Assembly (NCBI GenBank): GCA_040879145.1
Contig: JBBDKX010000036.1
Coordinates: 434 to 64,433, forward strand
DNA: 64,000 bases
Source: Candidatus Spechtbacterales bacterium
GTDB taxonomy: Bacteria; Patescibacteriota; Minisyncoccia; Spechtbacterales; 2-12-FULL-38-22
Direction: 5' to 3'
The notes under the pieces are model-generated. The model searched no databases. It had not been told where the DNA came from and was given only the letters and a program-made list of their open reading frames with translations. A program made the translations under genes and the position numbers. Shown piece by piece: positions 12,531-61,492 of this stretch. Position 1 is the first letter of the stretch, and each line of letters opens with the position of its first letter.

Positions 12531-12573
12531 TTTTCGTGGAACGTGTTACCCTACCGACCTAGGGTTCGCCAAA

Positions 12574-12987: not shown

Positions 12988-13024
12988 CTTGTTTCCTTTC
13001 TCCGTCCCGGGCATTTGCCTAGAA

Positions 13025-13219: not shown

Positions 13220-13547
13220 TATTTCCTCCTTTAGGAAATTTTCTCCCGCTTACTCGTTATTCAGCGGAAAGTTTAAAGAGCTACGATGTTTGTTTAAACA
13301 CCGGGAATGAGTACTTCAACGCGCTGTGCTTGCTCAGTATAAAATATGCAACATTTACTTTTATCCTGAGTTTACCGAAGGACTCCTTCTCGAAGTTTAA
13401 TAAAAAGAACTCTTACGGGAAGAGTTCTTTTTATTATTGCCTCACTCCAGCCGAAGCCAGGGTGGGTAATAGTTGCGAATAAATCGCAGCGCTGTGATTT
13501 AAAACTCTCTCCAAAGTTTTATTCTATTTTAAAGGTGAGTTTGTTTA

Positions 13548-14030: not shown

Positions 14031-14087
14031 TTCCAGTAAACGGCAAAATAAAAAAACTGCCTATCGGCAATTTAAAATTTATCTAAA

Positions 14088-14286
14088 GGATTTCTGGTAT
14101 TAATTTTATTCCGTCGTAAGCGGGAATGAGAGAGCTTTGTGCAAATACCCGAAGCGAGTAGAAAAACGGCTCTGCCGCGAGGCCTATCCCGAAGGGTAGC
14201 TGGCGTTTTTCGTAAACGAGCGAGGTTGTCCCGCATTTCTTGAAGCGAACGAATGGCAGCGTGGAATAAAATTATACCAGAAATCC
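14088..14286. ncRNA. structured element with ends pairing (24-bp terminal inverted repeat) around a GC-rich core; copy 1 of 2
   Basis: Shares the core ttttattccgtcgtaagc...gggaatgagRgagctttgtgcaaatacccgaagc...gcgaacgaatggcagc..gtggaataaaat with 57396-57652; the outer stems differ but stay complementary in each copy. Confidence 0.4.
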
Positions 14287-14287
14287 T

Positions 14288-18175: not shown

Positions 18176-18667
18176 CTAACCGGACATATCTATTTTTTTA
18201 ATTCTCCTAACGTGGCGTTCTTCGCCTGTGAACGGCGTTTCCAACCATAACTTTATTGCCTCCTCTGCCTCGTCGTCAGCTAAAAATCCGGATGCCAGAG
18301 AAAGAACGTTTGTATCATCATCTTCCCGGCTTAAAATTATCATATTATGAGGCTTGTCTTTTCTCCCCTGCCCCATTTCAGATATATCGGATGGCTCGCC
18401 GTAATACACAGCCGCGCGCACGTTATCAAAACGATTTGCCGCGATAGCCTCGCCCTGCCCGTTAAAGCCCAAAATTATCCCCCTTGTTTCTTCAGGGTCA
18501 TTTGCCACGGCTTTTGCCACGGGTTTTATAAAATCGGGGTAATCGTCCGCCTTATCGTACTCATACGCTCCCATATCGTCATACTCATATCCCCACTCCT
18601 GGAGCCAAACCTTTATTTTCTCTTTTAAATTGTATCCAGCGTGGTCACTGCCTAAATAAATCTTCAT
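18176..18667 (-). CDS. rpiB: ribose-5-phosphate isomerase B
   Basis: MKIYLGSDHAGYNLK... RpiB/LacAB signature. Confidence 0.9.
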   Translation of the reverse strand: MKIYLGSDHAGYNLKEKIKVWLQEWGYEYDDMGAYEYDKADDYPDFIKPVAKAVANDPEETRGIILGFNGQGEAIAANRFDNVRAAVYYGEPSDISEMGQGRKDKPHNMIILSREDDDTNVLSLASGFLADDEAEEAIKLWLETPFTGEERHVRRIKKIDMSG

Positions 18668-19875: not shown

Positions 19876-20012
19876 TTTAACATACGTACTGCCGATTCTA
19901 GAAACTAAAAACCGGCATAATGAACCGCACCCCATTTAGTGGACACGAAAACGTCCACTTTTTTGTATTTTGATACAAAAGAGAATACAATTAATTCAAT
20001 AAACAAAAAAAT

Positions 20013-20426
20013 ATGAGAAAAGAATTCACCCAGGATGAAATAAGAAGGTTAAACTCCAATGATGGCGTACAGAGCTGTACATCCAAGAGTATAACATTCA
20101 CCGAGACATTTAAAACAAAGGCTCTAAAGAGGTATGCGGATGGCCTAATGCCGATTCAGATATTCAGAGATATGGGCCTGGATGTTAACATAATCGGAAG
20201 AAAAACTCCCAAACGATGCATAGAAAGATGGAGAAAGCAGCTTAAAACAGAAGGTAGCCTTAAAGATAGTCGGGGCAAGCATTCTAAAGGAGGAGGCAGA
20301 AAACCAAAAGAAAAGATACCTAAAGATGAAAAGGAAAGAATAAAGTATCTTGAAGCCAAAGTGGCATATCTTGAGAAAGAGAACGCTTTTTTAGCAAAGC
20401 TCCGGGCCAAAAGAAAGGAGGAGTAA
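20013..20426 (+). CDS. IS3-family transposase OrfA (HTH + leucine zipper)
   Basis: 137 aa with a basic/LZ C-terminus KYLEAKVAYLEKENAFLAKL. Confidence 0.85.
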   Translation: MRKEFTQDEIRRLNSNDGVQSCTSKSITFTETFKTKALKRYADGLMPIQIFRDMGLDVNIIGRKTPKRCIERWRKQLKTEGSLKDSRGKHSKGGGRKPKEKIPKDEKERIKYLEAKVAYLEKENAFLAKLRAKRKEE

Positions 20427-21286
20427 TAATACTCAGGCCGCATCAGAAGTATGCTATTATCAGGAGCATACACAAGAACATTAAGATACTCTGCGAAATA
20501 GCAGAAGTATCAACAAGCGGATACTACAAAAGGCTCAAAACCGCGGATGATAAAGATAAGGACTACGAAGACTATCTGACTATCAAAAAGATATGCCAAA
20601 AAGGCAAAATGAGGTGGGGATATCGCAGAGTATGCATGGAATTAGATGGAAAGATGAACCACAAGAAGATCCTGCGCATAATGAACAAGTACGGACTTCT
20701 GGCAAAAACAAGGAGAGCCAATCCTTACAGGCAGATGGCTAAAAAGACCCAAGAACATAGAACCTTTCCAAATATATTAGATCGCAATTTCAAACAAGAA
20801 CATCCGCGCTCAGTATTTTGCGCAGATATCACATATCTTCCTTTTAATCACCGTTTCGCGTATCTGTCTGCCGTGAAGGACATAGCCACCAAGGAAATCG
20901 TAGCAGCACACCTTTCCATGCACATAGACGTGGAACTGGTGATAAGGACCATGGAAAAGTTCCGTAAAGATTCGTATATGCATAAAGAAGCCCTGATCCA
21001 TTCAGATCAAGGCTTCCATTACACCAATCCGGAGTTCATTGCGCTAACGAAACAGCTTAGATTAACGCAGTCAATGTCTAGAAAAGGAAATTGCATAGAC
21101 AACGCGCCAATAGAATCTTTCTTCGGGCACTTCAAGGATGAGATAGATTACAAGTCATGCAGAACATTTGAAGAATTAGAAATGCTCATTAACAATTACA
21201 TAGACCATTACAACAACGAAAGGAGGCAATGGGAATTAAAAAAGATGACCCCCGTACAATACAGAGATCATCTTTTGATGAAATAG
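20375..21286 (+). CDS. IS3-family transposase OrfB (DDE integrase core), expressed by a -1 frameshift from orfA
   Basis: The -1 frame opens at 20375; slippery heptamer T TTT TTA at 20387-20393; STSGYYKR, HSDQGFHYT and NAPIESFFGHFK motifs. Confidence 0.85.
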   Translation, partial: ERERFFSKAPGQKKGGVIILRPHQKYAIIRSIHKNIKILCEIAEVSTSGYYKRLKTADDKDKDYEDYLTIKKICQKGKMRWGYRRVCMELDGKMNHKKILRIMNKYGLLAKTRRANPYRQMAKKTQEHRTFPNILDRNFKQEHPRSVFCADITYLPFNHRFAYLSAVKDIATKEIVAAHLSMHIDVELVIRTMEKFRKDSYMHKEALIHSDQGFHYTNPEFIALTKQLRLTQSMSRKGNCIDNAPIESFFGHFKDEIDYKSCRTFEELEMLINNYIDHYNNERRQWELKKMTPVQYRDHLLMK

Positions 21287-21338
21287 CCGCTTTTTTATTC
21301 GTGTCCACTAAATGGGGTGCGGTTCATTATGCCGGTTT

Positions 21339-21629
21339 TTAGTTTCTTCTCTGAATTTCCCTGTATACTACTGAGCGATGTTCTATCAATAAAATATATA
21401 TATTGCGCCCGTTTACCTTAAAAATAATCCTGTAATCCCCCACTCTTAATTTTCTATACCCTTTCAAATTTTGCCGCAATGGCTGGCCGAATATTTCAGG
21501 ACGCGTTGAAAGCTTTGTCTCTATGCTCTCTTTGATGCGCTTTTGCCAGATTTTACTTAATTTGGGAATATCTTCAGAAATAACAAGCGGATGATATTCT
21601 ATACTAAACTTACTTCCAGGCATTTTCAT
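21339..21629 (-). CDS. RelE/ParE-family type II toxin
   Basis: LRVGDYRIIFKVNGRNIYILLIEHRSVVY; the stop codon lies inside the IS3 right terminal repeat. Confidence 0.8.
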   Translation of the reverse strand: MKMPGSKFSIEYHPLVISEDIPKLSKIWQKRIKESIETKLSTRPEIFGQPLRQNLKGYRKLRVGDYRIIFKVNGRNIYILLIEHRSVVYREIQRRN

Positions 21630-29369: not shown

Positions 29370-29431
29370 ATAGCAAGGTCGGTACTTAAAAAAGATCTGC
29401 CGAAGCAACTACATCTTTCTCAAATACTGCC

Positions 29432-29510
29432 CTGTGTAACTATTTTTAATTTTGCTAACTTCTTGCGGTGTGCCTTGTGCTACGACATACCCGCCCTCAT
29501 CACCTCCTTC
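29432..29510 (-). repeat. orphan duplicate of the last ~78 bp of uvrA (encodes ...[10 protein letters not shown])
   Basis: 78/79 identical to 29889-29967 (the true uvrA 3' end); flanks the GIY-YIG insert. Confidence 0.85.
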
Positions 29511-29575
29511 CCGATTTTGTTCAAATCTACGATTTGACCCAAAATCGTGGATCCTCGATTTCTCAACAACAGTTG

Positions 29576-29821
29576 CTATTTTTTATTGATAAGCCGCTCA
29601 ATGGCAGCTCGACTTTTCCATCCTTTGATTTGCTTCTCTCTCCTGCGCGCCTCGCTAAGCGTTTTATACTCTTCTAAATGCACTAATTCCCAAGGCTGAG
29701 CTGTCTTAGTGGATTTAACACAACCTTGATTATGTCGCTCTAAGCGACCCAATATATCATTACAAGACCCGATGTAATAAATACCTTTATTTAAAGATTT
29801 AATAATATAAATATAGTACAT
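29576..29821 (-). CDS. small stand-alone GIY-YIG nuclease-domain protein (YhbQ/UPF0213-like)
   Basis: [30 protein letters not shown]...KGWKSR. Confidence 0.75.
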
Positions 29822-29854
29822 AGATAGCAACTGTTGGAGAAATCGGGACAGGCC

Positions 29855-32689
29855 CTATTGATTTAGGACCTTTCGGAGGTATTGACCAGTGTAACTATTT
29901 TTAATTTTGCTAACTTCTTGCGGTGTGCCTTGCGCTACGACATACCCGCCCTCATCACCTCCTTCCGGTCCTAAATCAATCAAATGGTCGGCGTTTTTCA
30001 CAATATCCAGATTGTGCTCTATAACCAAAACTGAATTTCCTGTTGTAACAAGATCTTTAAGTACGCTTAAAAGTTTATTTACATCATCGGGATGCAGTCC
30101 TGTTGTGGGCTCGTCCAAAATATACAGAGTTTGTCCCGTTCCCCTGCGCGCAAGCTCTGTCGCAAGCTTTACCCTTTGCGCCTCCCCTCCGGAGAGCTGT
30201 GGCGCGGGCTGGCCTAAATGAATATACCCAAGTCCTACCTGAGCCAAAACATCCAGCTTGTTACGAACATAGGGTATGTTTTCAAAAAACTCGCGGGCTT
30301 CATCTACTGTCATCTCCAAAACATCGTGAATATCTTTTCCTTTGTATTTTATTTCCAAAACTTCTTTGTTATATCTTTTCCCTCCGCATGTTTCACACTC
30401 CACATAAATATCGCTCATAAAAAACATTTCTACCTTTGTTACTCCCCCACCCCTGCAACGCGAACACCTGCCACCTTTTACATTAAAGCTAAAACGACCA
30501 GGCTTATATCCACGTGCCCGCGATTCAGGAAGCCCCGCAAAAAGTTCACGAACCGGAGTAAACACATTTGTATAGGTTGCGGGATTACTGCGAGGCGTTC
30601 TGCCTATGGGCGACTGATCAATTACAATAGCTTTATCCAGATTATGCAAACCGATGATGCTTTTATGCTCGCCGGGCATGGTGTGCGCGCCGTGAAACTC
30701 TCGCCTTAATACTTTTGCCATAACATCATTTACAAGCGAACTCTTGCCCGAACCCGAAACACCTGTTATTGCAACAAGTTTGCCGAGCGGAATTTTCACA
30801 TCAATGTTTTTTAAATTATTGTGCCTTACTCCCTTAACGGTTAGATATTTTTGCGCATTACTTTTATTTTTTGGAATTTGAGCTTTGACATTTGACATTG
30901 GCATACGTTCGCCTACACGGCGTTTGCCATTCATATATTCCCCCGTCAGCGATTTAGATTTAAGGAGTTGATTATAAGTTCCCTCAAAAACAACCTCTCC
31001 CCCGTGTTTTCCCGCACCCGGACCAATATCTATAATATAGTCTGCTTCTTTTATGGTTAGCGTGTCGTGTTCTACGACCAAAACACTGCTACCCAAATCC
31101 CGCAACTCCTTCATGGTATCTATAAGGCGCTTTTGGTCCCGTGCGTGAAGACCGATTGAGGGTTCGTCCAAAATATACAAGACCCCGGCAAGATGTGAAC
31201 CCAGTTGTGTCGCAAGTTGAATGCGCTGCGCCTCTCCCCCGGACAAAGTTCCGGCCTGACGGGACAAAGTTAGGTAGTGCAACCCTACTCTACGCAAAAA
31301 ATTAAGCCTGTTGACTACCTCTTTAACTACCGGCTCCATTATCTTTTTTTCCGCGCTATTAAAATCTTTACTGTTAGGCAATTCAGAAAAAAAGACGTGC
31401 GCGTCATTAATGTGGTAGCTTACAACATCGTAAATGTTTTTACCTGCTATTTTTACAGACAGGGCTTCTTTTTTAAGACGCTTACCCTGACAAGCGGGAC
31501 AGTTGCGAATATTCATATATTTTTCTATCTCCGCGCGAGTGTGCTCACTCTCAGTCTCCTTGTGCCTGCGTTCCAAATTAGGTATTACGCCTTCCAGGTT
31601 TTCATCTCCGTAAAGTACAATATCCAAAGCTGACTTAGGCAAATCTTTTATCCTCACACTCATTGAAAAACCATACTTTTGACTCATCCTGTGGAGTATC
31701 GTCCAATACCATCCCTGGCGGCCAACCCTATGCGAAGCCATCATCCAAGGACGTATAGCTCCCTCATCCAGTGTTAAGTTTTTATTCGGCACAACAAGCT
31801 CAGGGTCAACTTCCATCTTTGTACCGAGGCCCGAACACTCGGGGCAAGCGCCGTAAGGACTATTAAATGAAAAAGTGCGCGGTTCTACCTCGCGCATGCT
31901 AAACCCGCACTTAGGACAAGCAAACTTTTCAGAAAAAACATGCTCGTCATACACAGGTTGAACCTGTGTATTTTTATGTAAAACTATTAGCTGTCCCTTT
32001 CCTATCTTTAAGGCCGTTTCTATGGAATCTAAAAGCCGTATTTTATCAAGCTCCTTTTCTATTTCCAACTTATCTACAACAACATCTATTGAGTGCTTTT
32101 TCTTAGGATCCAATTCTTTCCCCAATGCTTCTGCGAACGCCATGATAGTGCCGTCAACCCGCGCACGCACAAAACCCGCACTTCCAACCTCTTCTAAAAT
32201 TGCCTTATGCTCACCCTTCTTTCCTGAAACAAGAGGTGCTAAAATCACAACTTCGCCCTTCAGTTTTTTAACTGTTTCCGATATTTCCTGTGGACTGGAT
32301 GCCTCAATTAAAATATTACAATTAGGACAATACGGCTTTCCAATATGCGCAAACAAGAGCCGTAAATAATCGTATATTTCTGTTATCGTGCCCACCGTTG
32401 AACGTGGATTTTTGGAAACCGTCTTTTGGTCTATCGCGATTGCGGGAGAAATACCCTCAATGCTGTCCACTTCCGGCTTATCCATGACACCCAAAAACTG
32501 CCTGGCGTAACTTGAAAGTGATTCTACATAACGTCTTTGGCCTTCCGAATATATGGTGTCAAAAACAAGTGAGCTTTTACCTGAACCGCTTACACCCGTA
32601 AAAACCACAAGACTATTCTTGGGAACATCAATATCTATATTCTTTAAATTGTGGGTTTTAGCGCCCTTTATTTTTAGTTTATTGGTCAT
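29855..32689 (-). CDS. uvrA: excinuclease ABC subunit A
   Basis: Two ABC ATPase modules (GVSGSGKSSL twice); zinc fingers CPKCGFSMREVEPRTFSFNSPYGACPEC; 944 aa. Confidence 0.95.
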   Translation of the reverse strand: MTNKLKIKGAKTHNLKNIDIDVPKNSLVVFTGVSGSGKSSLVFDTIYSEGQRRYVESLSSYARQFLGVMDKPEVDSIEGISPAIAIDQKTVSKNPRSTVGTITEIYDYLRLLFAHIGKPYCPNCNILIEASSPQEISETVKKLKGEVVILAPLVSGKKGEHKAILEEVGSAGFVRARVDGTIMAFAEALGKELDPKKKHSIDVVVDKLEIEKELDKIRLLDSIETALKIGKGQLIVLHKNTQVQPVYDEHVFSEKFACPKCGFSMREVEPRTFSFNSPYGACPECSGLGTKMEVDPELVVPNKNLTLDEGAIRPWMMASHRVGRQGWYWTILHRMSQKYGFSMSVRIKDLPKSALDIVLYGDENLEGVIPNLERRHKETESEHTRAEIEKYMNIRNCPACQGKRLKKEALSVKIAGKNIYDVVSYHINDAHVFFSELPNSKDFNSAEKKIMEPVVKEVVNRLNFLRRVGLHYLTLSRQAGTLSGGEAQRIQLATQLGSHLAGVLYILDEPSIGLHARDQKRLIDTMKELRDLGSSVLVVEHDTLTIKEADYIIDIGPGAGKHGGEVVFEGTYNQLLKSKSLTGEYMNGKRRVGERMPMSNVKAQIPKNKSNAQKYLTVKGVRHNNLKNIDVKIPLGKLVAITGVSGSGKSSLVNDVMAKVLRREFHGAHTMPGEHKSIIGLHNLDKAIVIDQSPIGRTPRSNPATYTNVFTPVRELFAGLPESRARGYKPGRFSFNVKGGRCSRCRGGGVTKVEMFFMSDIYVECETCGGKRYNKEVLEIKYKGKDIHDVLEMTVDEAREFFENIPYVRNKLDVLAQVGLGYIHLGQPAPQLSGGEAQRVKLATELARRGTGQTLYILDEPTTGLHPDDVNKLLSVLKDLVTTGNSVLVIEHNLDIVKNADHLIDLGPEGGDEGGYVVAQGTPQEVSKIKNSYTGQYLRKVLNQ

Positions 32690-34255: not shown

Positions 34256-34615
34256 ATGTTGTTTACTTCAGTGCTAAAAATAGTTGTTAACGCGTTTGCC
34301 ATATACTTGGCATCTTTGCTTTTAGACGGCGTACAACTAAATATACCGAACGAATCACAGTGGCAGTATTACGCTATCTTCGCTTTAATTGGTTTTGTAA
34401 TATGGTTTGGCAATACAGTAATAAAGCCGGTTCTTAAAGTATTGACTTTTCCGCTCATTCTTGTAACATTCGGTTTGTTCAATGTTGTGCTTAACATGCT
34501 TATTTTGTGGGGTGCAGACCTACTGCTTCCTCAATTAGAAATAACAGGATTTCTAACTCTGTTGTGGGCATCATTAATAGTTTCATTTATTAACGGCTTA
34601 CTATTTTTTATATAG
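34256..34615 (+). CDS. DUF360 / phage-holin-4-like small membrane protein
   Basis: 4 TM helices; GtrA/YvlD-like topology. Confidence 0.55.
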   Translation: MLFTSVLKIVVNAFAIYLASLLLDGVQLNIPNESQWQYYAIFALIGFVIWFGNTVIKPVLKVLTFPLILVTFGLFNVVLNMLILWGADLLLPQLEITGFLTLLWASLIVSFINGLLFFI

Positions 34616-34730
34616 CTCGCTTCGCCTGCCTGTGCGTGAACGCACGCAGACAGGCTCGCAGGTATCAGGTTTTAGGTTTTAGGTATTAGACTAATATCTA
34701 ATACTTAGTGCTTAAAACCTATTTGTGAAC
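34615..34730 (+). repeat. intergenic repeat family R2 copy (gctcgcttcgc + GC hairpin cctgcctgtgcgtgaacgcacgcagacagg + AT-rich aggtatYaggttttag hairpin)
   Basis: Homologous copies at 36988-37100 (+), 42132-42275 (-), 55128-55262 (-) and 58796-58913 (-). Confidence 0.65.
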
Positions 34731-34740
34731 GAAGTTAACT

Positions 34741-34825
34741 CCGACGCTATCAAAATCTTTGATTTTGTTATAGCGTCGAGGATCCACGATACCGCAAGCG
34801 AATCAAAGATTCGGGTGGTATCGGG
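34741..34825 (+). promoter_or_regulatory. double-hairpin leader element (E3) immediately 5' of secG
   Basis: GACGCTAT[CAAAATCtttGATTTTG]ttATAGCGTC and CGATACCGCaag[CGAATCaaaGATTCG]ggtGGTATCG; about 97% identical to 37108-37195. Confidence 0.6.
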
Positions 34826-34833
34826 GCAAATAC

Positions 34834-35061
34834 ATGGATTTAAAAAACATTCTTCTAATTGCGCAGGTAATAATATCTATCGCGCTAATGACAACAATAC
34901 TACTCCAAAGAAGAGGCGCAAGCCTTGGGGCTACCTTTGGAGGTGGCGGCGGAGGAGGATACTACCAAAAAAGAGGGGCAGAAAAACTGCTTTTTAATGC
35001 GAGTATCGTGCTTTCTATGCTATTTATAGGAATAGCTTTTGTAATACTTGTGATCTCATAG
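34834..35061 (+). CDS. secG: preprotein translocase subunit SecG
   Basis: 75 aa, two TM helices and a Gly-rich loop (GATFGGGGGGGYY), as in SecG. Confidence 0.75.
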   Translation: MDLKNILLIAQVIISIALMTTILLQRRGASLGATFGGGGGGGYYQKRGAEKLLFNASIVLSMLFIGIAFVILVIS

Positions 35062-35136: not shown

Positions 35137-36987
35137 ATGTTCCAAGTTCTATGTTCTGTAATTTTGTGTGGCAAAACCGAACAAATGTTTAAAAGAAAGG
35201 AAAATAGACTACTTGCTAAGGAAGGGGCTAAAAAAGAAAAGGAAACCGTAAAATTTAGCCAGCGAATACATGATGGATATGTATCGCTGGTTTCTTTTGG
35301 TAAAGGAGTGTTCCACAGATTCAAACCTCAGGAAAAATATTTTGCGGGCATCGCCGCGCTTATTATTATAAGCTCTCTTTTTGCCATAGGTGTACAGGTG
35401 TACATAACAAAAACAAGCTCTGTTCCAGCCTTTGGCGGAGAATACAGAGAGGCAGTTATCGGTGTTCCGCGTTTTATAAATCCCGTACTTGCGTCTACTA
35501 ACGATGTAGATAGAGATTTGGTCCACCTTGTTTACTCATCTTTGGTGCGCTACGACAAAAATGGGGGTATAGTTCCCGATCTTGCAGAAGAATACACAAT
35601 ATCAGAAGACGGAAAACAGTATCGCTTTACTCTAAAAAACAACCTAAGGTGGGAGGATGGAACTCCCCTCACCGTCGATGATATTTTATACACGATAGGG
35701 CTCATACAAAATCCGCAGTACTCAAGTCCGCTGTTTCAAAGCTGGCAGGGTGTCCAGGTATTTAGCGAAGATAGCAGAACAGTAATTTTTGAACTATCCT
35801 CTCCTTATCCGGCATTTATAGAAAATGTCACCTTAGGAATCCTTCCAAAACACATATGGCAGGATGTAGATGAAAAAAATTTTGTTTTAACAGATTTGAA
35901 TTTAAAACCCATAGGTTCGGGGCTATACAAAGTTGAAAAATTCACAAAAGACAACGCGGGTTTTATATCCTCTTACACGCTTGTGCGCAACGAAAGATAT
36001 TACAACCAAAAACCGTTTATAAATAAGATTACTTTTAAATTTTTCTCATCAGAAACAGACACGGTAAAAGCTTATAACGCCAAGAGTGTAGACGGAATAT
36101 CTTTCATTTCTTCAGGGGTAATAACCGAAATGGAAGACAAAGAAGCCTTCAATATGCATGAATTTAAAATGCCAAGATATTTTTCCATATTCATTAACAA
36201 GGAAAAAAACGAGGCCTTGCAAGACCTAAAGGTGCGCCAGGCTTTAAGTTACGCCACCAACAGAAAACAAATAATAGACGGCGTTCTTTTAGGTTACGCG
36301 CAAGAGGTGGGAACCCCCATACCTCCCAACTTAACTTCATACTACAATGAAAGCGCTGAATTTTTAGACTACAATCCGGAAAAAGCGCGAGAACTTCTTA
36401 GAGAAGCGGGGTGGGAGGACAACAACGAAGATGGTATTTTAGAAAAAAGTACAGGGGAAGAAGATGCCGAAGTGCAGGAATTATCCTTAACCCTTGTAAC
36501 AGCGCAGCGTCCCGAACTTGAGCAGGTTGCGCAACTACTACAAGAGCAGTGGAGGCAAGTTGGAATCAACTTAAATTTTAAAACAGAAGAGTTGGGAGAA
36601 CTTCAACAAAGCACAATACGTTCGCGCAACTATGAGCTACTCATGTTTGGAGAGATTCTCGGAACCATACCGGATCCCTTCAGTTTCTGGCATTCTTCAC
36701 AAAAAAATGACCCGGGACTTAATCTTGCAAATTATGATAATAGGGAAATAGATAAGCTGCTTGAAGAGGCGCGGCAAGAGACAAACAAAGAGGCACGCAT
36801 TGAAAAGCTTAACGAATTTCAGCTCAAGGTAACGGCGGATGTGCCTGCAATATTCCTGTATGACCCCGCATATCTTTACCCTATACAAAAAAGCATACGA
36901 GGAATTGAACCTGTCTTTATGGTTGACAGCTCGTGGCGATTCGCAGACATACAAAACTGGTATATAGCAACTAAGAGAGTATTTTAA
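35137..36987 (+). CDS. ABC transporter substrate-binding protein, family 5 (oligopeptide/dipeptide type), N-terminally membrane-anchored
   Basis: SBP_bac_5-like sequence; the start may be an internal Met near 35185. Confidence 0.75.
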   Translation: MFQVLCSVILCGKTEQMFKRKENRLLAKEGAKKEKETVKFSQRIHDGYVSLVSFGKGVFHRFKPQEKYFAGIAALIIISSLFAIGVQVYITKTSSVPAFGGEYREAVIGVPRFINPVLASTNDVDRDLVHLVYSSLVRYDKNGGIVPDLAEEYTISEDGKQYRFTLKNNLRWEDGTPLTVDDILYTIGLIQNPQYSSPLFQSWQGVQVFSEDSRTVIFELSSPYPAFIENVTLGILPKHIWQDVDEKNFVLTDLNLKPIGSGLYKVEKFTKDNAGFISSYTLVRNERYYNQKPFINKITFKFFSSETDTVKAYNAKSVDGISFISSGVITEMEDKEAFNMHEFKMPRYFSIFINKEKNEALQDLKVRQALSYATNRKQIIDGVLLGYAQEVGTPIPPNLTSYYNESAEFLDYNPEKARELLREAGWEDNNEDGILEKSTGEEDAEVQELSLTLVTAQRPELEQVAQLLQEQWRQVGINLNFKTEELGELQQSTIRSRNYELLMFGEILGTIPDPFSFWHSSQKNDPGLNLANYDNREIDKLLEEARQETNKEARIEKLNEFQLKVTADVPAIFLYDPAYLYPIQKSIRGIEPVFMVDSSWRFADIQNWYIATKRVF

Positions 36988-37100
36988 GCTCGCTTCGCCT
37001 GCCTGTGCGTGAACGCACGCAGACAGGCTCGCAGGTATTAGGTTTTAGCTTTTAGGTATCAGACTAGTACCTAGTACCCACAACCTATTTTGTGAGGTGG
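36988..37100 (+). repeat. R2 repeat copy upstream of pgi
   Basis: gctcgcttcgcctgcctgtgcgtgaacgcacgcagacaggctcgcaggtattaggttttagcttttaggtatcag... Confidence 0.65.
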
Positions 37101-37107
37101 AGCGAAT

Positions 37108-37195
37108 CCCGACGCTATCAAAATCTTTGATTTTGTTATAGCGTCGAGGATCCACGATACCGCAAGCGAATCAAAGATTCGGGCGGTATCGGGAC
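37108..37195 (+). promoter_or_regulatory. double-hairpin leader element (E3), copy 2, immediately 5' of pgi/pmi
   Basis: Same two nested hairpins as 34741-34825. Confidence 0.6.
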
Positions 37196-37201
37196 AAAAA
37201 C

Positions 37202-38206
37202 ATGAATGAAAAAAATATAGACTCGTATAATATGAGGCAAATAATACTGGACTTTCCCAGGCAGTTCCCCGTCGGGTACGGTGCAGTTGGTGATGCGGGA
37301 AAAGAATTTACAAGCAAAGAGTTTAAAAACATAATTATCGCGGGAATGGGAGGGTCAGCGCTTGCGGGGGAGGTTTTAACACTTCTTTCAGGAGCATTAA
37401 AACTTCAACTACCTGTGTTTATACATCGAGATTACGGATTAAGCTCTATGGCAAACAAAAACAGTCTTATTGTAACCCTATCCTACTCAGGTAATACAGA
37501 GGAAACTCTTTCCGTGTATCAGGCAGCCAAAGAAAAGGGTATAACGCTTGCGGTTATTACAAGCGATGGAAGTCTTAAGCAGATGGCCAAAAAAGACAAA
37601 AAACCTTTAGCAATTGTGCCCGAGGGTATCCCCCCTCGCCTCGCAATTGGATATCAATTTTCTGCTCTTTTGGCTATACTTTCAAATGTGGGGATAATTG
37701 AACCAAAAGAAGATGTGGTGCAAAAAATATCCTCTGAGTTGAAATCCGCTGAAGTAATGAGTCTCGCAAAAGAATTGGTGGGTGAGATAAAAGAAAAAAC
37801 TCCCATAATATACTCATCCAAGGCAAATAGTCCCCTTGCATACATAATGAAGATACAGATAAACGAGAACGCGAAAAGACACGCTTTTTATAACTCGTTT
37901 CCGGAACTTAATCACAATGAAATACTGGGATACGAAAACTCAAACCCCGACAACTTCTTTGTCTTTATGTTGCGGGATAAAAACGACCACCCGAAAAATC
38001 AAAGAAGAATGGAAATAACAGCCAGACTGCTTGAAAAAAGAAAGTACAAAGTTAAATTTATTGACATTGAGGGTGAAAATATGTATAATAGAGCTTTCAA
38101 TGCCATACTTTTTGGCACTTGGCTCTCATATTATTTAGCTATACAAGATAGTATAGACCCCACTCCTGTTACCCTGATAAAAGAAATTAAACGCTCGCTC
38201 AGTTAA
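37202..38206 (+). CDS. bifunctional phosphoglucose/phosphomannose isomerase (SIS domain)
   Basis: IIIAGMGGSALAGEVL SIS motif; archaeal-type PGI/PMI family length. Confidence 0.75.
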   Translation: MNEKNIDSYNMRQIILDFPRQFPVGYGAVGDAGKEFTSKEFKNIIIAGMGGSALAGEVLTLLSGALKLQLPVFIHRDYGLSSMANKNSLIVTLSYSGNTEETLSVYQAAKEKGITLAVITSDGSLKQMAKKDKKPLAIVPEGIPPRLAIGYQFSALLAILSNVGIIEPKEDVVQKISSELKSAEVMSLAKELVGEIKEKTPIIYSSKANSPLAYIMKIQINENAKRHAFYNSFPELNHNEILGYENSNPDNFFVFMLRDKNDHPKNQRRMEITARLLEKRKYKVKFIDIEGENMYNRAFNAILFGTWLSYYLAIQDSIDPTPVTLIKEIKRSLS

Positions 38207-38301: not shown

Positions 38302-38385
38302 GCGCAGATGGCGGAATCGGTAGACGCGCTACGTTCAGAACGTAGTGGGCGCAAGCCCGTGGAGGTTCAAGTCCTCTTCTGCGCA
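38302..38385 (+). tRNA. tRNA-Leu (anticodon CAG), type II with a long variable arm
   Basis: GCGCAGA acceptor; GGCGGAATCGGTAGACGC D-arm; CTACG-TTCAGAA-CGTAG anticodon arm; GGAGGTTCAAGTCCTCT T-arm. Confidence 0.9.
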
Positions 38386-38387
38386 CA

Positions 38388-38544
38388 ATTTAACGAAGTG
38401 AAATTGAGAGTAGGAGAGGATGCAGAACCTCAGGAAGGGGTCCCACCAGAGGCGGGCAAGCAGGCCTGCCTGCCGGCTCGCCTCGCTCTCTCGGCGGAGC
38501 GGGCAGGCAGGGAAGCGGGGGGAGTCCTCTTCTGCGCACATGTA
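38388..38544 (+). repeat. GC-rich ~140-bp insert ending in an 18-bp direct repeat of the tRNA-Leu 3' end (agtcctcttctgcgcaca)
   Basis: Contains the CCTGCCTGCC...GGGCAGGCAGG palindrome (38465-38511); an attL/attR-like duplication. Confidence 0.6.
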
Positions 38545-42131: not shown

Positions 42132-42275
42132 AGATTTTATTTCGGCTCTACCTCACAAAATAGGTATTAGGTTTTAGCTATTAGGTATTACACTAGTGTA
42201 GCACCTAATAGCTAAAACCTAATACCTGCGAGCCTGTCTGCGTGCGTTCACGCATAGGCAGGCGAAGCAAGCTTG
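42132..42275 (-). repeat. R2 repeat copy upstream of pgm, with a perfect 25-bp inverted repeat AGGTATTAGGTTTTAGCTATTAGGT
   Basis: Reverse complement gcttcgcctgcctatgcgtgaacgcacgcagacaggctcgcaggtattaggttttagctattaggt... Confidence 0.65.
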
Positions 42276-42311
42276 TTGACTAATACACTTATTATGATAC
42301 CATATCTAAGT

Positions 42312-51746: not shown

Positions 51747-51779
51747 ATTTTTGTTCCTACCTGCGCCGCATTATGCAAC

Positions 51780-51903
51780 GCGGCAGGCAGGCACTTCGTT
51801 CACATTAACCGCTGATATATGCTGATTTTGCGGATTTTATGCTGATAACATCCGCATCTATCTGCTTTTATCCGCATTAATCCGCGGTTTAAGCGAAGCG
51901 AGC
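51780..51903 (-). repeat. R1 repeat copy C, occupying the rpoB-rpoC intergenic spacer
   Basis: Reverse complement taagctcgcttcgcttaaaccgcggattaatgcggataaaagcagatagatgcggatgttatcagcataaaatccgcaaaatcagcatatatcagcggttaatgtgaacgaag. Confidence 0.65.
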
Positions 51904-55116: not shown

Positions 55117-55127
55117 AAAATTTTATT

Positions 55128-55262
55128 CCTGCCTGCGCCGGCTACGCTAGCGCGGCAGGCAGGTTGCTTAGCCTTACAAGTAGGTTTTAGGTACTAGGGG
55201 TTAGGTATTAGTCTAATACCTAAAAGCTAAAACCTGATACCTGCTCGCGAAGCGAGCTTAAT
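55128..55262 (-). repeat. R2-like repeat upstream of rpoB (a variant lacking the inner GC hairpin but with an adjacent cctgcctgcgcc...gcggcaggcagg hairpin)
   Basis: Reverse complement gctcgcttcgcgagcaggtatcaggttttagcttttaggtattagactaatacctaacccctagtacctaaaacctac. Confidence 0.6.
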
Positions 55263-55512: not shown

Positions 55513-55695
55513 CTATTTTTTCCAATCCTTTATAATAATCTTGCCGTCTTTTTCTTCAACTACAACTTTTTGCCGCTCGCGCCAGCCGAGCTTTTTTACT
55601 ATCTCTTTTGGTAAAGTTAAACCAAACGAAGCGCCCTCGCGCCCTGTCCGCATTATTTTCCTTATATTTTTTTCTTCTAATTTCCGCCTGCCCAT
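55513..55695 (-). CDS. AbrB/MazE/SpoVT-family small DNA-binding protein (solo)
   Basis: IRKIMRTGREGASFGLTLPKEIVKKLGW...DGKIIIK swapped-hairpin pattern. Confidence 0.55.
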   Translation of the reverse strand: MGRRKLEEKNIRKIMRTGREGASFGLTLPKEIVKKLGWRERQKVVVEEKDGKIIIKDWKK

Positions 55696-55912
55696 ATTTT
55701 TTATTATATAATTTGTTATATAATAGTCAAACTTATCTGTTGCATAGTTTTTCTATTTCTATAAAAACTTTTTGAAAATCTTTGTTTATAAAAAATGTAT
55801 CAATAAATCTTTTTCTATTTTCTTCGGAAATATTAAGGATCTTATCTATCTTCCACGCCTCAAAACCCTGTGATTTGCCCTTTTCAACCTTAAGGTCATT
55901 TATATCTCCTTC

Positions 55913-56296
55913 CTATTGAAAAACATAAATCGCGCGCAGTACATTGTTAGTCATCCCTGTTATCTCATCATAAAAACGGCCTCTCATGGTCAAAATATAT
56001 TGAAGTTCGTCAATATTCGCCTCTATGCTTGCTTCTTCTTCAAGCTCCTTGACGGCTGCAGTTTCAAAGCTATCACCTATCTCAACATGCCCGCCAACCG
56101 AAGCGTCAAGCAAATCGGGATATGTATCCTTATCTTTAGCCCTGTGTTGGAATATTATTTTACAATCCGGAGTATACAACCATACGTGCACCTCTCTGTG
56201 CAATAAACCCTTTTCGTGTATATCCTCTCTTGTTGCCTCACCAATTATTTCTCCTTTTTTATTTACAATATTTAATTTTTCGCCATCTTTAGTCAT
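55913..56296 (-). CDS. Nudix hydrolase
   Basis: Nudix box GGHVEIGDSFETAAVKELEEEASI. Confidence 0.8.
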   Translation of the reverse strand: MTKDGEKLNIVNKKGEIIGEATREDIHEKGLLHREVHVWLYTPDCKIIFQHRAKDKDTYPDLLDASVGGHVEIGDSFETAAVKELEEEASIEANIDELQYILTMRGRFYDEITGMTNNVLRAIYVFQ

Positions 56297-56332
56297 AATC
56301 TTATAATAACAAAAACCCCGCCTTGTGCGGGA

Positions 56333-56725
56333 TTATCTCTTGTCAATTTTATTGGAATGGCTTTTCAGCCATTTTACAATGTCAGAAATTTCTAATTTAT
56401 CCTCAACTGTCTTTAATGCAAACTCAACCACCTCTTCATCAGTGGCTTTAAATATATATCCATTATTTTCCAAAAACACAGAGGCGACAGTTATTGCGGT
56501 TCGTTTATTACTGTCCACAAAAGGATGCTGTGTTATTATCTCCCGCAGATATACAGCGGCTTTTTCGTAAATACTGTTGTAAAGAATTTTTCCAAAAACT
56601 TTTTGTTTTGGCGCGCTTTCCAAACTCAAAACGGCGTGACTATCACGCACACCATGAGAGCCTCCAGTTTCATCAACTACCATGGAATGTATTAAAAGTA
56701 TTTGCTCTGAAGTTAAATAGCGCAC
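56333..56725 (-). CDS. Doc/Fic-family toxin
   Basis: HPFVDSNKRTA (Doc variant of the Fic motif). Confidence 0.8.
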   Translation of the reverse strand: MRYLTSEQILLIHSMVVDETGGSHGVRDSHAVLSLESAPKQKVFGKILYNSIYEKAAVYLREIITQHPFVDSNKRTAITVASVFLENNGYIFKATDEEVVEFALKTVEDKLEISDIVKWLKSHSNKIDKR

Positions 56726-56727
56726 AA

Positions 56728-56967
56728 TTATTTATCCGCTAATTCATTTAAAGCTCCTCGATAACGGTCAATGAAGTTCATAGTAAGCTTGGCTATCTTC
56801 TCATCTTCTTTAGATATCTCTGTGGCGGAATGTATTGTTATAACCTTATTCTTCCTATTGAAATTTACCTCAACATTATCACCCGGCTTTAAGCCCAGTT
56901 CTTTTAACGCTTTCTTTGAAAGGGTAACTCCTGCGGAGGTTCCTATTTTTATAACTTTTTGAGACAT
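56728..56967 (-). CDS. AbrB/MazE-type antitoxin (Phd-like partner of Doc)
   Basis: VIKIGTSAGVTLSKKALKELGLKPGDNVEV; 3 bp upstream of doc. Confidence 0.7.
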   Translation of the reverse strand: MSQKVIKIGTSAGVTLSKKALKELGLKPGDNVEVNFNRKNKVITIHSATEISKEDEKIAKLTMNFIDRYRGALNELADK

Positions 56968-57018
56968 ATTTTCAAAAATTAATATTATATAAGCTACACT
57001 ATATAATCTGCGCCGTTC

Positions 57019-57081
57019 GAAAAAAGAAATAAATTTTAAGAAAAAAGCAAGCTTTTTTCTTAAAATTTATTTCTTTTTTGC
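57019..57081. promoter_or_regulatory. 63-bp near-perfect palindrome (29-bp arms) upstream of the phd/doc-like operon
   Basis: gaaaaaagaaataaattttaagaaaaaagc aag gcttttttcttaaaatttatttcttttttgc. Confidence 0.55.
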
Positions 57082-57185
57082 TCGCTATCCTCGATTATAA
57101 TAACATTATAATATATGCAGGAATGCTGTCAATAGCTTACGCTTACCACAAGTACTCTTCTTGGGCACCAAACGCCTCGCCCGCC

Positions 57186-57295
57186 GTGTATATCCTCTCT
57201 TGTTGCCTCACCAATTATTTCTCCTTTTTTATTTACAATATTTAATTTTTCGCCATCTTTAGTCATACTCTTATTATACTAAAAAACCGCCCTCT
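57186..57295 (-). repeat. orphan duplicate of the Nudix gene 5' end (start codon + first ~26 codons, 85 bp identical to 56216-56300)
   Basis: gtgtatatcctctcttgttgcctcaccaattatttctccttttttatttacaatatttaatttttcgccatctttagtcata present twice. Confidence 0.8.
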
Positions 57296-57395
57296 TAGGC
57301 AGTCAGGCTTTTCAGATTTTGAATTAGTTCTATATCGCAAAAATTCTAAGATTTGCTTACACTCAACTCAACCAAGGCCGGAAACAGCAACCATT

Positions 57396-57652
57396 TTATT
57401 CCGTCGTAAGCCCGTCTCGCCTGAGGCTTGCCGAGGTGGACGGGAATGAGGGAGCTTTGTGCAAATACCCGAAGCTTATAAGAAAAGGGTCTTGCCTTTA
57501 GGCCTATCTTTTGCGTGTGGGCAAAAGTAGCTGTCGCTTTTCCGTTAAGTAAGCGAGGTTTACCCGCCGAAGCCTTGGCGTAGGCTGGGCTGTATTTGCC
57601 AAAGCGAGCGAATGGCAGCCTGCCTGCCGGCAGGCAGGCGTGGAATAAAATG
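57396..57652. ncRNA. structured element copy 2 (same core as 14088-14286), with a 14-bp terminal inverted repeat and an embedded CCTGCCTGCCGGCAGGCAGG palindrome
   Basis: Conserved blocks ttttattccgtcgtaagc, gggaatgagggagctttgtgcaaatacccgaagc, aggcctatc, gcgaatggcagc, gtggaataaaat. Confidence 0.4.
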
Positions 57653-57675
57653 GTTACTATTGGAGGCTAAATCAC

Positions 57676-58788: not shown

Positions 58789-58795
58789 AAAAAAG

Positions 58796-58913
58796 TTTTA
58801 GGTTTTAGGTATTAGGTACTAGGTTCTAGATATTAGTCTAATCCCTAAAAGTTAAAACCTGGTACCTGCGAGCCTGTCTGCGTGCGTTCACGCACAGGCA
58901 GGCGAAGCGAGCC
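58796..58913 (-). repeat. R2 repeat copy immediately upstream of the rodA/ftsW start
   Basis: Reverse complement gctcgcttcgcctgcctgtgcgtgaacgcacgcagacaggctcgcaggtaccaggttttaacttttagggattagactaatatctagaacctagtacctaatacctaaaacctaaaac. Confidence 0.65.
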
Positions 58914-58914
58914 T

Positions 58915-59793
58915 TTAGAAAATGCTCCAACCCTGGAATCGTTTAAACAGTTCGGGTAACTGAAAATAGTTGCGTGAATCAGCATCTCCTCTGGAACCCT
59001 CGGTTTCAATGGGTCTGTCTACTCCAAACTGTCTTACAAAGTTTTCATTCTTTAGTACATTAGAGTACGCGTATACATTATATTTTACAACATCATCCAA
59101 GGGTACAAATTGAGACCAAAACATTTCCACCTCTCTCATTTCACCCTCCAGTACTGTCTGTATGGATGTTCTGTTAACAGCAATTATATCTCCTCTACTA
59201 TCAAAAAGAATGCCAAAAACTCTTACATCCGTCAATCCAAATACAGAATTATTTTTAACAAACGCGGCAAGGCGCGCGTAAAAAACATTTGAATCCAACA
59301 ACCGCTCAAGTTTAAGGTCAAAGACATCCAAATTAAGGGAGATAAAATCGTCAAGCTGTCTCCACAGTACATCCCGAAAATCCAGGCTAACATCATCAAA
59401 AAAAGAATTCACCTCCATGTTTGTAAGCACAATATACTTTTCTTCTGCAGGTAGTATGTAGGAAGTTTCTTCTATAGCATGGACCTCTGACCCATTACTG
59501 GAAAATACAACTCTATATCGCAGTTCTTCTGCGCCGTGCTCAGGGTTTGGATTTCTAAGTTTAATAACAACATCGTAAACATTCCCCTGTTTTGGCAAAG
59601 CTTGTACGTCTAAAACCTCCAGACTATCTAAAGACGGGCCTTGGTCAGGTGTTTGATATGGTGTTTGGTATGGCTCTTCCGGCTCAGTATTATCCGCAAA
59701 AATACGGGCTAATAAAAAACCTCCCGCAGATATGGCAAGCCCCAGAACAGAAACAGTAATTACCAGTATTACTAATTGTTTTACAGATCTCAT
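58915..59793 (-). CDS. hypothetical membrane-anchored protein (292 aa)
   Basis: N-terminal TM helix; repeated PYQTP. Confidence 0.5.
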   Translation of the reverse strand: MRSVKQLVILVITVSVLGLAISAGGFLLARIFADNTEPEEPYQTPYQTPDQGPSLDSLEVLDVQALPKQGNVYDVVIKLRNPNPEHGAEELRYRVVFSSNGSEVHAIEETSYILPAEEKYIVLTNMEVNSFFDDVSLDFRDVLWRQLDDFISLNLDVFDLKLERLLDSNVFYARLAAFVKNNSVFGLTDVRVFGILFDSRGDIIAVNRTSIQTVLEGEMREVEMFWSQFVPLDDVVKYNVYAYSNVLKNENFVRQFGVDRPIETEGSRGDADSRNYFQLPELFKRFQGWSIF

Positions 59794-60481: not shown

Positions 60482-60872
60482 CTGTCGATTTTTCTCTTGT
60501 TGCCAAGAGGATCGGACTATATCTTCATCCTATTGCGGACTTTAGGCGTTCTTAGCCATAGCCTCGCTTTTTATAATAGGAGTCGGCGTGTTGTCCTTCA
60601 AATTTTTTCGAAGAACCTCCCCTTTCGGGTCAGTCTCTACGGGGTCATAACCCAATTTGTATTCCATAGATGGAATAATATGTGGTTTAACGATCTGCTT
60701 AAGCAATGGAATACTCGATTAACCACAGGTCTTTGAAATTGAGTTAGACTTCCCACGGTATTGTCCATACGTATATTCTACCATTATTTGGTAGCGCTAG
60801 TGCATGGAGTTCACCGTTATAAGCCGAATTGTTTTTGTATGAGATTACTCTCATAGGCACCCCGATATGTTA
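60482..60872 (-). ncRNA. probable group I intron (~391 nt, no ORF) inserted at 23S position ~2500 (E. coli numbering) in the peptidyl-transferase region
   Basis: Interrupts GGCACCU | CGAUGUCGGCUC; 5' exon ends in U, insert ends in G; IGS GGGGUGCC pairs with the exon GGCACCU; UAGUC P7-like element. Confidence 0.6.
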
Positions 60873-61492
60873 AGGTGCCGAACCTCCCCGTCGATGTGGA
60901 CTCTCGGGGGAGACCAGCCTGTTATCCCCGGGGTAACTTTTATCTGGTGATCTTCCTCTTTTCTATAAAAGAAGGTCGGTTCACTAAGTTCTGCTTTCGC
61001 AACTCTCTACTCCAGTAAACTGGAGTAGAGTCTGTTACTTCCCTGAGATTAAAATCACAGGGTTTTACAGAGCGCGGCTTATTTGCCTTGCAGTAAAGCT
61101 GGCTTGTGCCTTTACACTATCGCTCCGATTTCCATCCGGAGCTAGCCAACCTTAATAAACGCCTCCGCTACCATTTAGGAGGCAAGCGCCCCACTTAAAC
61201 TACCTACCATCCACTGTCCCGAATGTGTTTAGCATCCGGTTAGTCACAGTATTTTGAAAGATGGGTATTTCACTGGCGACTCCACACTGGCCGAAACCAG
61301 CGCTTCAAAGTCTCCCCACTATGCTACGCAGCCAAAACACTGCAACAATAGAAAGCTGTAGTAAAGCTCCCGGGGTCTTTCCGTCTATCCGCGGGTAACC
61401 GGCATCTTCACCGGTACTGCATTTTCACCGGGCTTCTCGTCGAGACAGTTGTCCAGTCGTTACGCCTTTCGTGCGGGACAGAACTTACCTGC

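Follow-up and report, generated by a model that had tools for sequence, protein, structure and literature searches.

A self-promoted Doc toxin-antitoxin operon between two copies of a Nudix gene start in Candidatus Spechtbacterales, and the recurrence of such brackets around small selfish cassettes

The Doc operon and the duplicated start of the Nudix gene

The stretch of DNA analysed here (the window) covers 64,000 nucleotides (nt) of contig JBBDKX010000036.1 from a Candidatus Spechtbacterales bacterium (assembly GCA_040879145.1) and contains a toxin-antitoxin (TA) pair located between two copies of the start of a Nudix hydrolase gene. The TA pair comprises a Doc toxin and an antitoxin of the 'doc_partner' type, and very probably forms a self-promoted minimal operon bracketed by the duplicated gene start, as one instance of a recurrent architecture. 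The locus exhibits the following features, where ORF stands for open reading frame and aa for amino acids:

55733-56296, minus strand: Nudix gene, isopentenyl-diphosphate-isomerase-like (Pfam, homologue alignment)
56215-56323, minus strand: repeat copy A, joined to the Nudix body (repeat search, alignment)
56314-56334, minus strand: terminator-like (intrinsic) hairpin just past the Doc stop codon (terminator scan)
56324-57184, minus strand: cargo of 861 bp, i.e., promoter, palindrome, antitoxin, toxin and 5' half of a terminator stem
56333-56725, minus strand: Doc toxin, Fic fold, 130 aa, GTG start (Pfam Fic 6.9e-15; NCBIfam DOC_P1)
56728-56967, minus strand: antitoxin, AbrB/MazE-type 'doc_partner', 79 aa (TIGR02609 and weak AbrB/MazE/ChpS matches)
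57020-57079, no strand assigned: perfect palindrome of 60 nt, with 29-nt arms and a 2-nt spacer (repeat search)
57105-57132, minus strand: sigma-70 promoter TTGACA-16-TATAAT, 12/12 consensus matches (promoter scan)
57129-57266, minus strand: orphan ORF of 45 aa, i.e., 27 aa of Nudix N-terminus and 18 unrelated residues, no Pfam match
57185-57293, minus strand: repeat copy B (orphan), i.e., 26 nt of 5' region with a TATAAT-like box, ATG and 27 codons (repeat search)
57285-57304, minus strand: terminator-like hairpin and T-run closing an upstream structured non-coding element (terminator scan)

In the first instance, a repeat search across the window revealed a direct repeat of 109 nt (56215-56323 versus 57185-57293) with 94% identity and a spacing of 970 nt, which comprises 26 nt of upstream sequence, the ATG and 27 codons of the Nudix ORF. 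Within it, a run of 83 nt is exactly identical (56215-56297 and 57185-57267), corresponding on the minus strand to one upstream base, the ATG and 27 Nudix codons (MTKDGEKLNIVNKKGEIIGEATREDIH), and all seven mismatches are confined to the remaining 26 nt (P=4e-5 under uniform divergence). The recurrence of an exact 83-mer in 64 kb is far above chance expectation. In alignment, the Nudix N-terminus encoded by the repeat coincides with the N-termini of homologues from the family and stops right after an invariant His; after codon 27, identity between the copies breaks off and no residual similarity is found further on. Since the repeat holds the gene start, one complete gene start therefore stays joined to the Nudix gene (copy A), and the orphan copy B runs on directly from the native upstream sequence. 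Read along the minus strand, the order is thus the non-coding element (57661-57383), a terminator, copy B, the cargo, a second terminator, copy A and the Nudix body; in both terminators, the 3' half-stem and the T-run lie inside the repeat copy and the 5' half-stem outside of it.

In an independent assembly, a Logan unitig of 947 bp (L001; SRR27977663) is 100% identical to 57214-56268 and, because it spans these positions, independently confirms both inner junctions. Repeat and unitig agree with a previous sequence-only reading, according to which a TA cassette lies between the native Nudix 5' region and the gene body, bracketed by the duplicated gene start; the two copies proposed there do exist, but the orphan one extends to about 57293 and not to 57266 as first delimited. 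As found by ORF and Pfam scan, the cargo encodes the antitoxin and Doc only and is devoid of a mobility gene. A foreign composition of the cargo was also considered and discarded, its GC content (0.31-0.39) being no different from that of the neighbours.

From profile and motif matches, the Doc identity of the toxin is secure. It scores 77.6 bits against TIGR01550 DOC_P1 (cut-off of 38.65) and its motif HPFVDSNKR corresponds to the Doc-type HxFx(D/N)(A/G/S)NKR, where H67, F69, D71, N73, K74 and R75 are invariant in 20 homologues. The antitoxin gene lies upstream, its stop codon 2 nt before the Doc GTG, and its product matches the TIGR02609 doc_partner family (E=2.2e-12, 47.2 bits, under the curated cut-off of 55.9) as well as, weakly, solved 'addiction module antidote' and AbrB chains; no Phd/YefM match appeared in profile searches. 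Judged from these profiles, the antitoxin fold is AbrB/MazE-like, so that the designation "Phd/Doc-type" initially given to the pair holds for the Doc toxin with an AbrB-type antitoxin but not for a Phd/YefM-fold antitoxin, i.e., this is not Phd/Doc in the strict sense. The phage P1 Phd/Doc system is alike in its Fic-fold Doc with HxFx(D/N)xNKR and in an antitoxin gene upstream of and nearly abutting the toxin gene, but differs in that its antitoxin has the Phd/YefM fold. The best Doc homologue is 63% identical, the sole exact match to the cassette is the 947-bp unitig with the same arrangement, and viral contigs provided two distant Doc matches only (36% identity). Per se, the TA pair is by its sequence an ordinary Doc/doc_partner module.

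At the upstream end of the cargo, after its first 52 nt, lies the consensus promoter (57132->57105), followed downstream by the palindrome, 52 nt ahead of the antitoxin gene. The palindrome is real, with the 29-nt arms originally described, though 60 nt long rather than 63. As RNA, it corresponds to a 29-bp A/U-rich hairpin followed by a U-run, and the 141-nt region around it has a folding energy of -37.9 kcal/mol (z=-4.9). It has no second copy in the window and no counterpart among 47 related cassettes; not being conserved across the TA family, it is unlikely to be the family operator, a role for which it had been put forward. Matches of the palindrome in Rfam were dismissed as microRNA-like noise under the threshold. 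What recurs in most of the 47 related cassettes is a dyad, ATTATAAT-N1-5-ATTATAAT, 5-18 nt upstream of the antitoxin ATG (seen in L084, L085, L088, L099, L102, L115, L124, L126, L133, L138 and others), which from its sequence and position is probably a -10 region and an operator candidate; this position suggests a very short leader, if any. As for the palindrome, it may act as a predicted bidirectional terminator, insulator or attenuator, placed with the orphaned Nudix 5' region and the cargo promoter on one side and the TA genes on the other, or may simply have arisen as a by-product when the cassette was inserted.

Respective to the target gene, the Nudix frame comprises an in-frame TAG (55913-55915) after codon 127, where a Tyr is found in 7/7 aligned homologues, and past this codon another 58 codons are conserved in frame; homologues have 182-193 aa, and the NCBI annotation of this Candidatus Spechtbacterales metagenome-assembled genome (MAG) covers a 127-aa Nudix product only. 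Described before as intact, the gene therefore is not, the stop codon replacing a conserved Tyr; the TAG may be a recent nonsense mutation turning the gene into a pseudogene, a sequencing error or a site of read-through. The event parted the Nudix gene from the upstream sequence native to it, and a nonsense codon now stands in its frame. The best Nudix homologue is 67% identical, and the surroundings of three homologues (61-62% identity) are not syntenic with the window. No relative of the Nudix locus was present among the genome contigs, and an exact-protein look-up of the Nudix product was also negative; with no close relative in the searched collections, no empty-site allele is available for this locus. 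Just downstream of the Nudix gene, a lone AbrB/MazE-type ORF of 60 aa (55513-55695, minus strand; Pfam MazE_antitoxin 1.3e-8, weak doc_partner match) has a near-consensus promoter (55730->55703) and no toxin partner, and may be a solitary regulator or the leftover of a second TA cassette.

Recurrence of the bracket in related loci and in the window

The comparison set consisted of 160 Doc-relative loci, 80 each from genomes and metagenomes, with groundwater Patescibacteria making up most of the metagenomic ones. A tight bracket was defined as a direct repeat of at least 30 nt, ending at most 450 nt upstream of the antitoxin and restarting at most 250 nt after Doc; it was counted on 105 distinct loci with enough flank, with equal-sized segments of the same loci as controls. 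Such a bracket was present at 13 of the 105 Doc loci and in 8 of 2146 control segments (odds ratio of 38, Fisher P=3.5e-13), i.e., an enrichment of about 33-fold around TA cassettes. Among Doc relatives at least 43% identical, 7 of 39 were bracketed, and L082 and L103 are further bracketed cases with flanks too short for the count. Most bracketing repeats correspond to the terminus of an adjacent gene, as listed below by locus:

L139, L140, L169 and L154, L156, L157: S10 3' end (Pfam-verified)
L142: RpoC 3' end (Pfam-verified)
L003, a Saccharibacterium: SecA 3' end (Pfam-verified)
L111: MnmA 3' end (Pfam-verified)
L036, Binatia: MetF 5' untranslated region and start (Pfam-verified)
L037, Nostoc: purL (by inspection only)
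L066, Nitrospira: AsmA-like gene (by inspection only)
L049: TIR-like gene start in three copies (by inspection only)
L121: gene start beginning MSDPIIQEIKSR (by inspection only)
L100, L016, L019: intergenic repeats (three cases)

Across loci, the repeats are 33 to 119 nt long. The cassette has the orientation of its target gene in all 12 gene-terminus cases, and the downstream copy starts 0-15 nt past the Doc stop codon or overlaps it, from which co-orientation and abutment it follows that the unit is a minimal operon. The S10, RpoC, SecA and MnmA ends are kept intact at the sister loci.

At the S10 3' end, the brackets build arrays. In L157, the order is S10, a copy, a Fic protein, a copy, the antitoxin/Doc pair, a copy, an AbiEii pair and a remnant copy; in L139, three long copies part the TA pair from a two-gene cargo and are followed by mini-copies of 13-14 nt, which repeat the final S10 codons around the stop codon and have hairpins between them. 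As a whole, this hotspot spans 2693-7200 in L139 and 1794-5772 in L157, with varied addiction or defence cargo including Fic, antitoxin/Doc (Phd-like/Doc), AbiEii as well as an 845-aa protein; behind each of these stands a synonymously diverged version of the last ~100 nt of S10. Between L139 and L157, the Doc toxins of the S10-site cassettes are 49% identical and the S10 proteins 80%; Doc being far more diverged than S10, the site was hit independently. S10 relatives without a cassette (L170 and L172) have a single copy of the gene end, with differing downstream context.

The bracketed cargo is not restricted to Doc, since PIN, ParE-like, Gp49/helix-turn-helix and DUF4160/DUF2442 pairs are bracketed in these loci as well. 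In L167 (4350-4800), a GIY-YIG ORF of 98 aa adjoins a homologue of the window's Nudix (60% identical) and has on either side a copy of 47 nt from the 5' part of a tRNA gene (87% identity), i.e., the same architecture with other cargo and target. As such, small selfish cassettes, namely TA pairs and GIY-YIG genes, are recurrently bracketed by at least two copies of the terminus of an adjacent gene.

In the window, three further gene-terminus duplications had been claimed, at uvrA, rpiB and a tRNA-Leu gene. The first shares the architecture, with a GIY-YIG ORF between two copies of the uvrA 3' end:

29415-29511, minus strand: uvrA 3' end, orphan copy, 92% identity (repeat search)
29576-29830, minus strand: GIY-YIG nuclease ORF, 84 aa, the cargo (Pfam 4e-19)
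29870-29966: uvrA 3' end, attached copy (repeat search)

Both copies encode the same 32 residues and 7/7 differing codons are synonymous. The rpiB case did not stand, as tblastn revealed no orphan RpiB fragment and no DNA repeat of at least 20 nt was found near 18176-18667. The tRNA-Leu case is real as to an 18-nt repeat of the 3' end, but this repeat encloses only a 134-nt GC-rich hairpin resembling repetitive extragenic palindromic (REP) elements. Details of this tRNA-Leu(CAG) duplication are its positions, 38369-38388 and 38521-38540, and the core of the 134-nt insert, a GCAGGCCTGCCTGCC...GGGCAGGCAGG hairpin. Many intergenic regions are filled with similar GCAGGCAGG hairpins and AGGTATTAGGTTTTAGG repeats (e.g., 34614-34722, 36987-37095, 42162-42279, 51749-51791, 55121-55245 and 58793-58919). 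A 243-nt repeat (34607-34847 and 36982-37215; 87% identity, with a REP-like element and two hairpins) was tried as another gene-terminus duplication and rejected, for it is an intergenic REP-plus-leader sequence ending at two different start codons, those of a secG-like gene (34834-35061) and of a PGI-type SIS gene (37202-38206); both genes may share it as a leader or regulatory element, or else it may be an intergenic module capable of moving.

The four junction sets of the window have no 7-mer in common, so the att-like core expected from a single integration mechanism is missing; the targeting and regeneration of gene ends, proposed on the same occasion, does recur in the 160 related loci but without a junction motif shared in the window. 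Among 43 window ORFs searched with Pfam, no tyrosine or serine recombinase was detected, eight of these ORFs having no Pfam match at all. The sole mobility gene among the scanned ORFs encodes an IS3-type DDE transposase (20609-21286), and recA and ssb are present. The IS3-family element itself (19900-21347) exhibits 50-nt perfect terminal inverted repeats, an HTH_Tnp_2 ORF and an rve integrase-core ORF, and is directly adjoined by a ParE-type toxin ORF (21339-21629).

Divergence between the copies and origin of the bracket

Considering the origin of the second copy, the differences between copies were counted by codon, in the coding frame, over seven loci, i.e., the uvrA case of the window and six sister loci:

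Window uvrA: 7 synonymous, 0 non-synonymous
L139: 16 synonymous, 0 non-synonymous
L154: 11 synonymous, 1 non-synonymous
L049: 8 synonymous, 1 non-synonymous
L023: 9 synonymous, 6 non-synonymous
L111: 5 synonymous, 6 non-synonymous
L121: 2 synonymous, 1 non-synonymous

Altogether, 58 differing codons are synonymous and 15 non-synonymous, where neutral drift of an orphan from a fresh duplicate predicts about 40% synonymous (P=7e-12 for the excess). The three L139 copies encode the same 33-residue C-terminus of S10 at a DNA identity of 80-85%, and one of the orphan copies there resembles the functional S10 end found in another lineage (87%) more than it resembles its neighbour. At the sister loci, the synonymous excess therefore indicates that both copies diverged mostly as parts of working genes, and thus that the extra copy arrived with the cassette from a diverged genome.

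These observations are tentatively best accounted for, at somewhat short of an even chance, by a homology-driven insertion via portable copies of gene ends. The extra copy would not be born at insertion but would be an imported gene end, functional in its source lineage, so that the cassette and its flanking gene-end copies would constitute one unit carrying its own portable homology. After DNA uptake, RecA would recombine these copies with the single orthologous gene end of the recipient, following either (i) a Campbell-type single crossover by a looped-out circle with one copy, or (ii) a double crossover of a linear fragment, to which one copy would contribute its left part and the other its right part. 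The insertion would rebuild the bracket and leave the gene whole, a dedicated recombinase would not be required, and the addictive TA pair would then withstand loss. Such a process would work wherever the orthologous gene end is similar enough, a dependence that fits the predominance of conserved housekeeping targets. It would also fit the remark of Furuta et al. that insertions of this kind occur mostly in naturally competent species (PMC2853133). Taken further, and here the proposal becomes rather doubtful, TA and GIY-YIG cassettes may represent a recombinase-free class of mobile elements, with paired host-gene-terminus copies as homology arms, which would insert by transformation and RecA at orthologous gene ends in ultra-small DNA-scavenging bacteria and in other phyla, regenerate both gene and bracket, and build integron-like arrays at hotspots, e.g., the S10 3' end.

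Several points weigh against insertion by portable gene ends. Neither an empty-site allele nor a close relative was found for the Nudix locus; there, the 83 coding nt are identical, so that the synonymous test is inapplicable to the Nudix repeat, and the contrast between 0/83 and 7/26 mismatches needs an extra step under any model, possibly a gene conversion that covered the coding part, or a junction that arose between two terminators. No model accounts for how a first bracketed copy would come to lie at a new target, and natural competence of this Spechtbacterales lineage is an assumption. In addition, the 13-14-nt mini-copies of L139 and the 18-nt tRNA-Leu repeat of the window are too short for RecA; they may resemble the core of a site-specific recombinase, or be decay products. 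Finally, a large serine recombinase gene lies ~320 nt beyond the orphan MnmA copy in L111.

The last two points lead to the most serious alternative, on the whole an unlikely one, namely a tyrosine or serine recombinase acting in trans. The repeats would then be attL and attR, the cassette recombinase-less and cis-mobilisable with an attP holding the gene-terminus copy, and the arrays the result of tandem accretion at the same attB. Gene-end regeneration by a diverged, element-borne copy is a classical signature of integrative elements, and the synonymous divergence of the copies fits a recombinase in trans equally well, as do the S10 3'-end arrays with their stop-codon-centred mini-copies, the 3'-end repeat of tRNA-Leu and the serine recombinase beside the orphan MnmA end. 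Such an enzyme was nevertheless found neither in the cargo nor among the scanned window ORFs (~64 kb of genome; eight ORFs without Pfam match) and no core is common to the four junction sets of the window, while the variable length of the repeats is also at odds with it; moreover, one and the same TA family sits at S10, rpoC, secA, mnmA, metF, purL and Nudix, each of which would need an enzyme of its own.

Still less probable is a long target duplication made in situ at insertion, either by staggered breaks and fill-in or by replication template switching, where the repeat would be a fresh copy of the recipient's sequence. For the Nudix locus taken alone, the perfect identity of the 83-nt coding part is as expected from a recent event, and an 8-nt microhomology, ACAAGAGA, exists between the Doc 3' end and the repeat end, though the seven differences in the 26 nt adjoining this perfect stretch argue otherwise. 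Documented cases are restriction-modification (RM) systems, which lack mobility genes and are flanked by repeats of 30-400 bp (PMC2853133). Against it stands that the copies at the sister loci and at uvrA in the window differ almost only synonymously, which is incompatible with a neutral orphan.

A decayed second Nudix paralogue, or a larger tandem duplication worn down to a 27-codon stub next to which the TA pair was acquired separately, is very improbable: while a gene start that is cut short but keeps an upstream region of its own does look like a decayed paralogue, the identity stops abruptly past codon 27 with nothing similar beyond, a perfect 83-nt identity is unlike an eroded copy, and the bracket recurs around TA cassettes at the enrichment given above. 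Hardly credible is an assembly artefact merging, through the 83-nt repeat, an uninterrupted Nudix locus with a separate 970-bp circle or tandem array, since, although the k=31 Logan unitig stops 30 nt into the repeat at both ends and the graph topology permits either resolution, each copy is preceded by a specific 26-mer of its own that leads to a different neighbour, the MAG contig of 65.7 kb runs unbroken through the region (k-mers or reads above 83 nt are needed for this and were presumably used), and the same architecture appears in many independent assemblies.

Two further kinds of mobile DNA were examined and rejected for the Nudix locus. No inverted repeats link the cargo ends (56324 and 57184) and the duplication of 109 nt compares with 2-14 bp typically made by transposons or insertion sequences. 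As for an integron cassette, the repeat is the start of a protein-coding gene, aligning with homologue N-termini, and no integrase (IntI) was found.

Known systems and further features of the window

The movement of chromosomal TA pairs devoid of any mobility gene is a long-standing question, as it has been for RM units since 2000. For the latter, Nobusato et al. 2000 (Gene 259:99) reportedly described insertion with long target duplication. The window locus is alike in being a small addictive unit without mobility gene, with variable repeats of tens to hundreds of bp often overlapping a gene end; in genomes without the RM unit, the repeat is single-copy. For such RM units, direct repeats of 30-400 bp, the absence of mobility genes and an unknown mechanism have been reported (PMC2853133, PMC3874152), most of the cases coming from bacteria capable of natural transformation (Furuta, Abe and Kobayashi 2010, PMC2853133). 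Following the Kobayashi definition, the flanking repeat exceeds 30 bp (109 nt) and the insert is below 20 kb (861 bp) without mobility gene, but the cargo is a TA pair and not an RM system. Other differences from RM units are that the cargo here, i.e., a TA pair or else a GIY-YIG gene, lacks a nuclease for the proposed double-strand break, that the hosts are mostly Patescibacteria, and that the copies differ synonymously at the sister loci, which points to imported gene ends rather than target duplication. A full-text literature search, from which subscription journals were largely absent, returned no report of this architecture for TA cassettes.

Integrative elements insert at the ends of tRNA and protein genes and regenerate them, and recombinase-less, cis-mobilisable forms as well as tandem accretion exist. 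Likewise here, a gene terminus is duplicated as attL/attR would be, with a diverged functional replacement end and arrays at one site, and copy A restores the Nudix gene start. In contrast to integrative elements, no integrase was found in the unit or among the scanned window ORFs, the cargo is only ~0.4-0.9 kb, and one cargo family uses many targets with no common core found. The minimal mobile elements of Neisseria, reportedly described by Saunders and Snyder in 2002, are mobility-gene-free cassettes swapped by transformation and homologous recombination in conserved flanks; these use two different flanking genes without duplication, whereas both arms here copy the same gene end. TA cassettes of integrons are also minimal TA units parted by direct repeats of 60-120 nt, sometimes in arrays, but the repeat in the window is a host gene start and not an attC hairpin, and no IntI was found. 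Three of the loci outside the candidate phyla radiation, namely L016, L017 and L019, may be integron-type cassettes.

As such, the locus and about 20 sister loci bring TA and GIY-YIG cassettes, as well as Patescibacteria, within the scope of the long-target-duplication architecture. They add, from the near-exclusively synonymous copy differences at the sister loci, evidence for imported functional gene ends, and turn the question into a testable model, portable homology arms versus a recombinase in trans. The truncated orphan gene starts and ends left by such brackets can mislead annotation and may accompany decay of the target gene, as here.

Besides the subjects above, the structured non-coding element upstream of copy B (57383-57661) is one of two same-orientation copies of an unannotated, structured-RNA-like element, the other being located at 14085-14290. 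Common to both are a closing stem, TTTATTCC/GGAATAAA, and a core of 35 nt, CGGGAATGAGRGAGCTTTGTGCAAATACCCGAAGC (97% identity), with compensatory change in variable stems (CUAUCCC-GAA-GGGUAG versus CUAUCUUUUGC-GUGUGG-GCAAAAGUAG). Neither copy matched Rfam at the gathering threshold (for 57383-57661, none at E<=1 either), and no homologue occurred in 1.1 Mb of collected loci. Each copy lies 13-15 nt past the stop codon of a minus-strand gene, encoding the C-terminal part of a transketolase and FtsW/RodA, respectively.

Elsewhere in the window, a GC-richer, foreign-looking segment (11900-13100), the ORFs of which have no Pfam match, is bounded by two exact 23-nt hairpin repeats, TTAGCACCCTCTGAGGGTGCTAA (11900-11922 and 12503-12525). 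A group I intron lies within the 23S rRNA gene (60493-60884; Rfam 51.2 bits, gathering score of 50), and tandem repeats are made of 78-nt units at 13544-13699 and of 45-nt units at 3078-3167.

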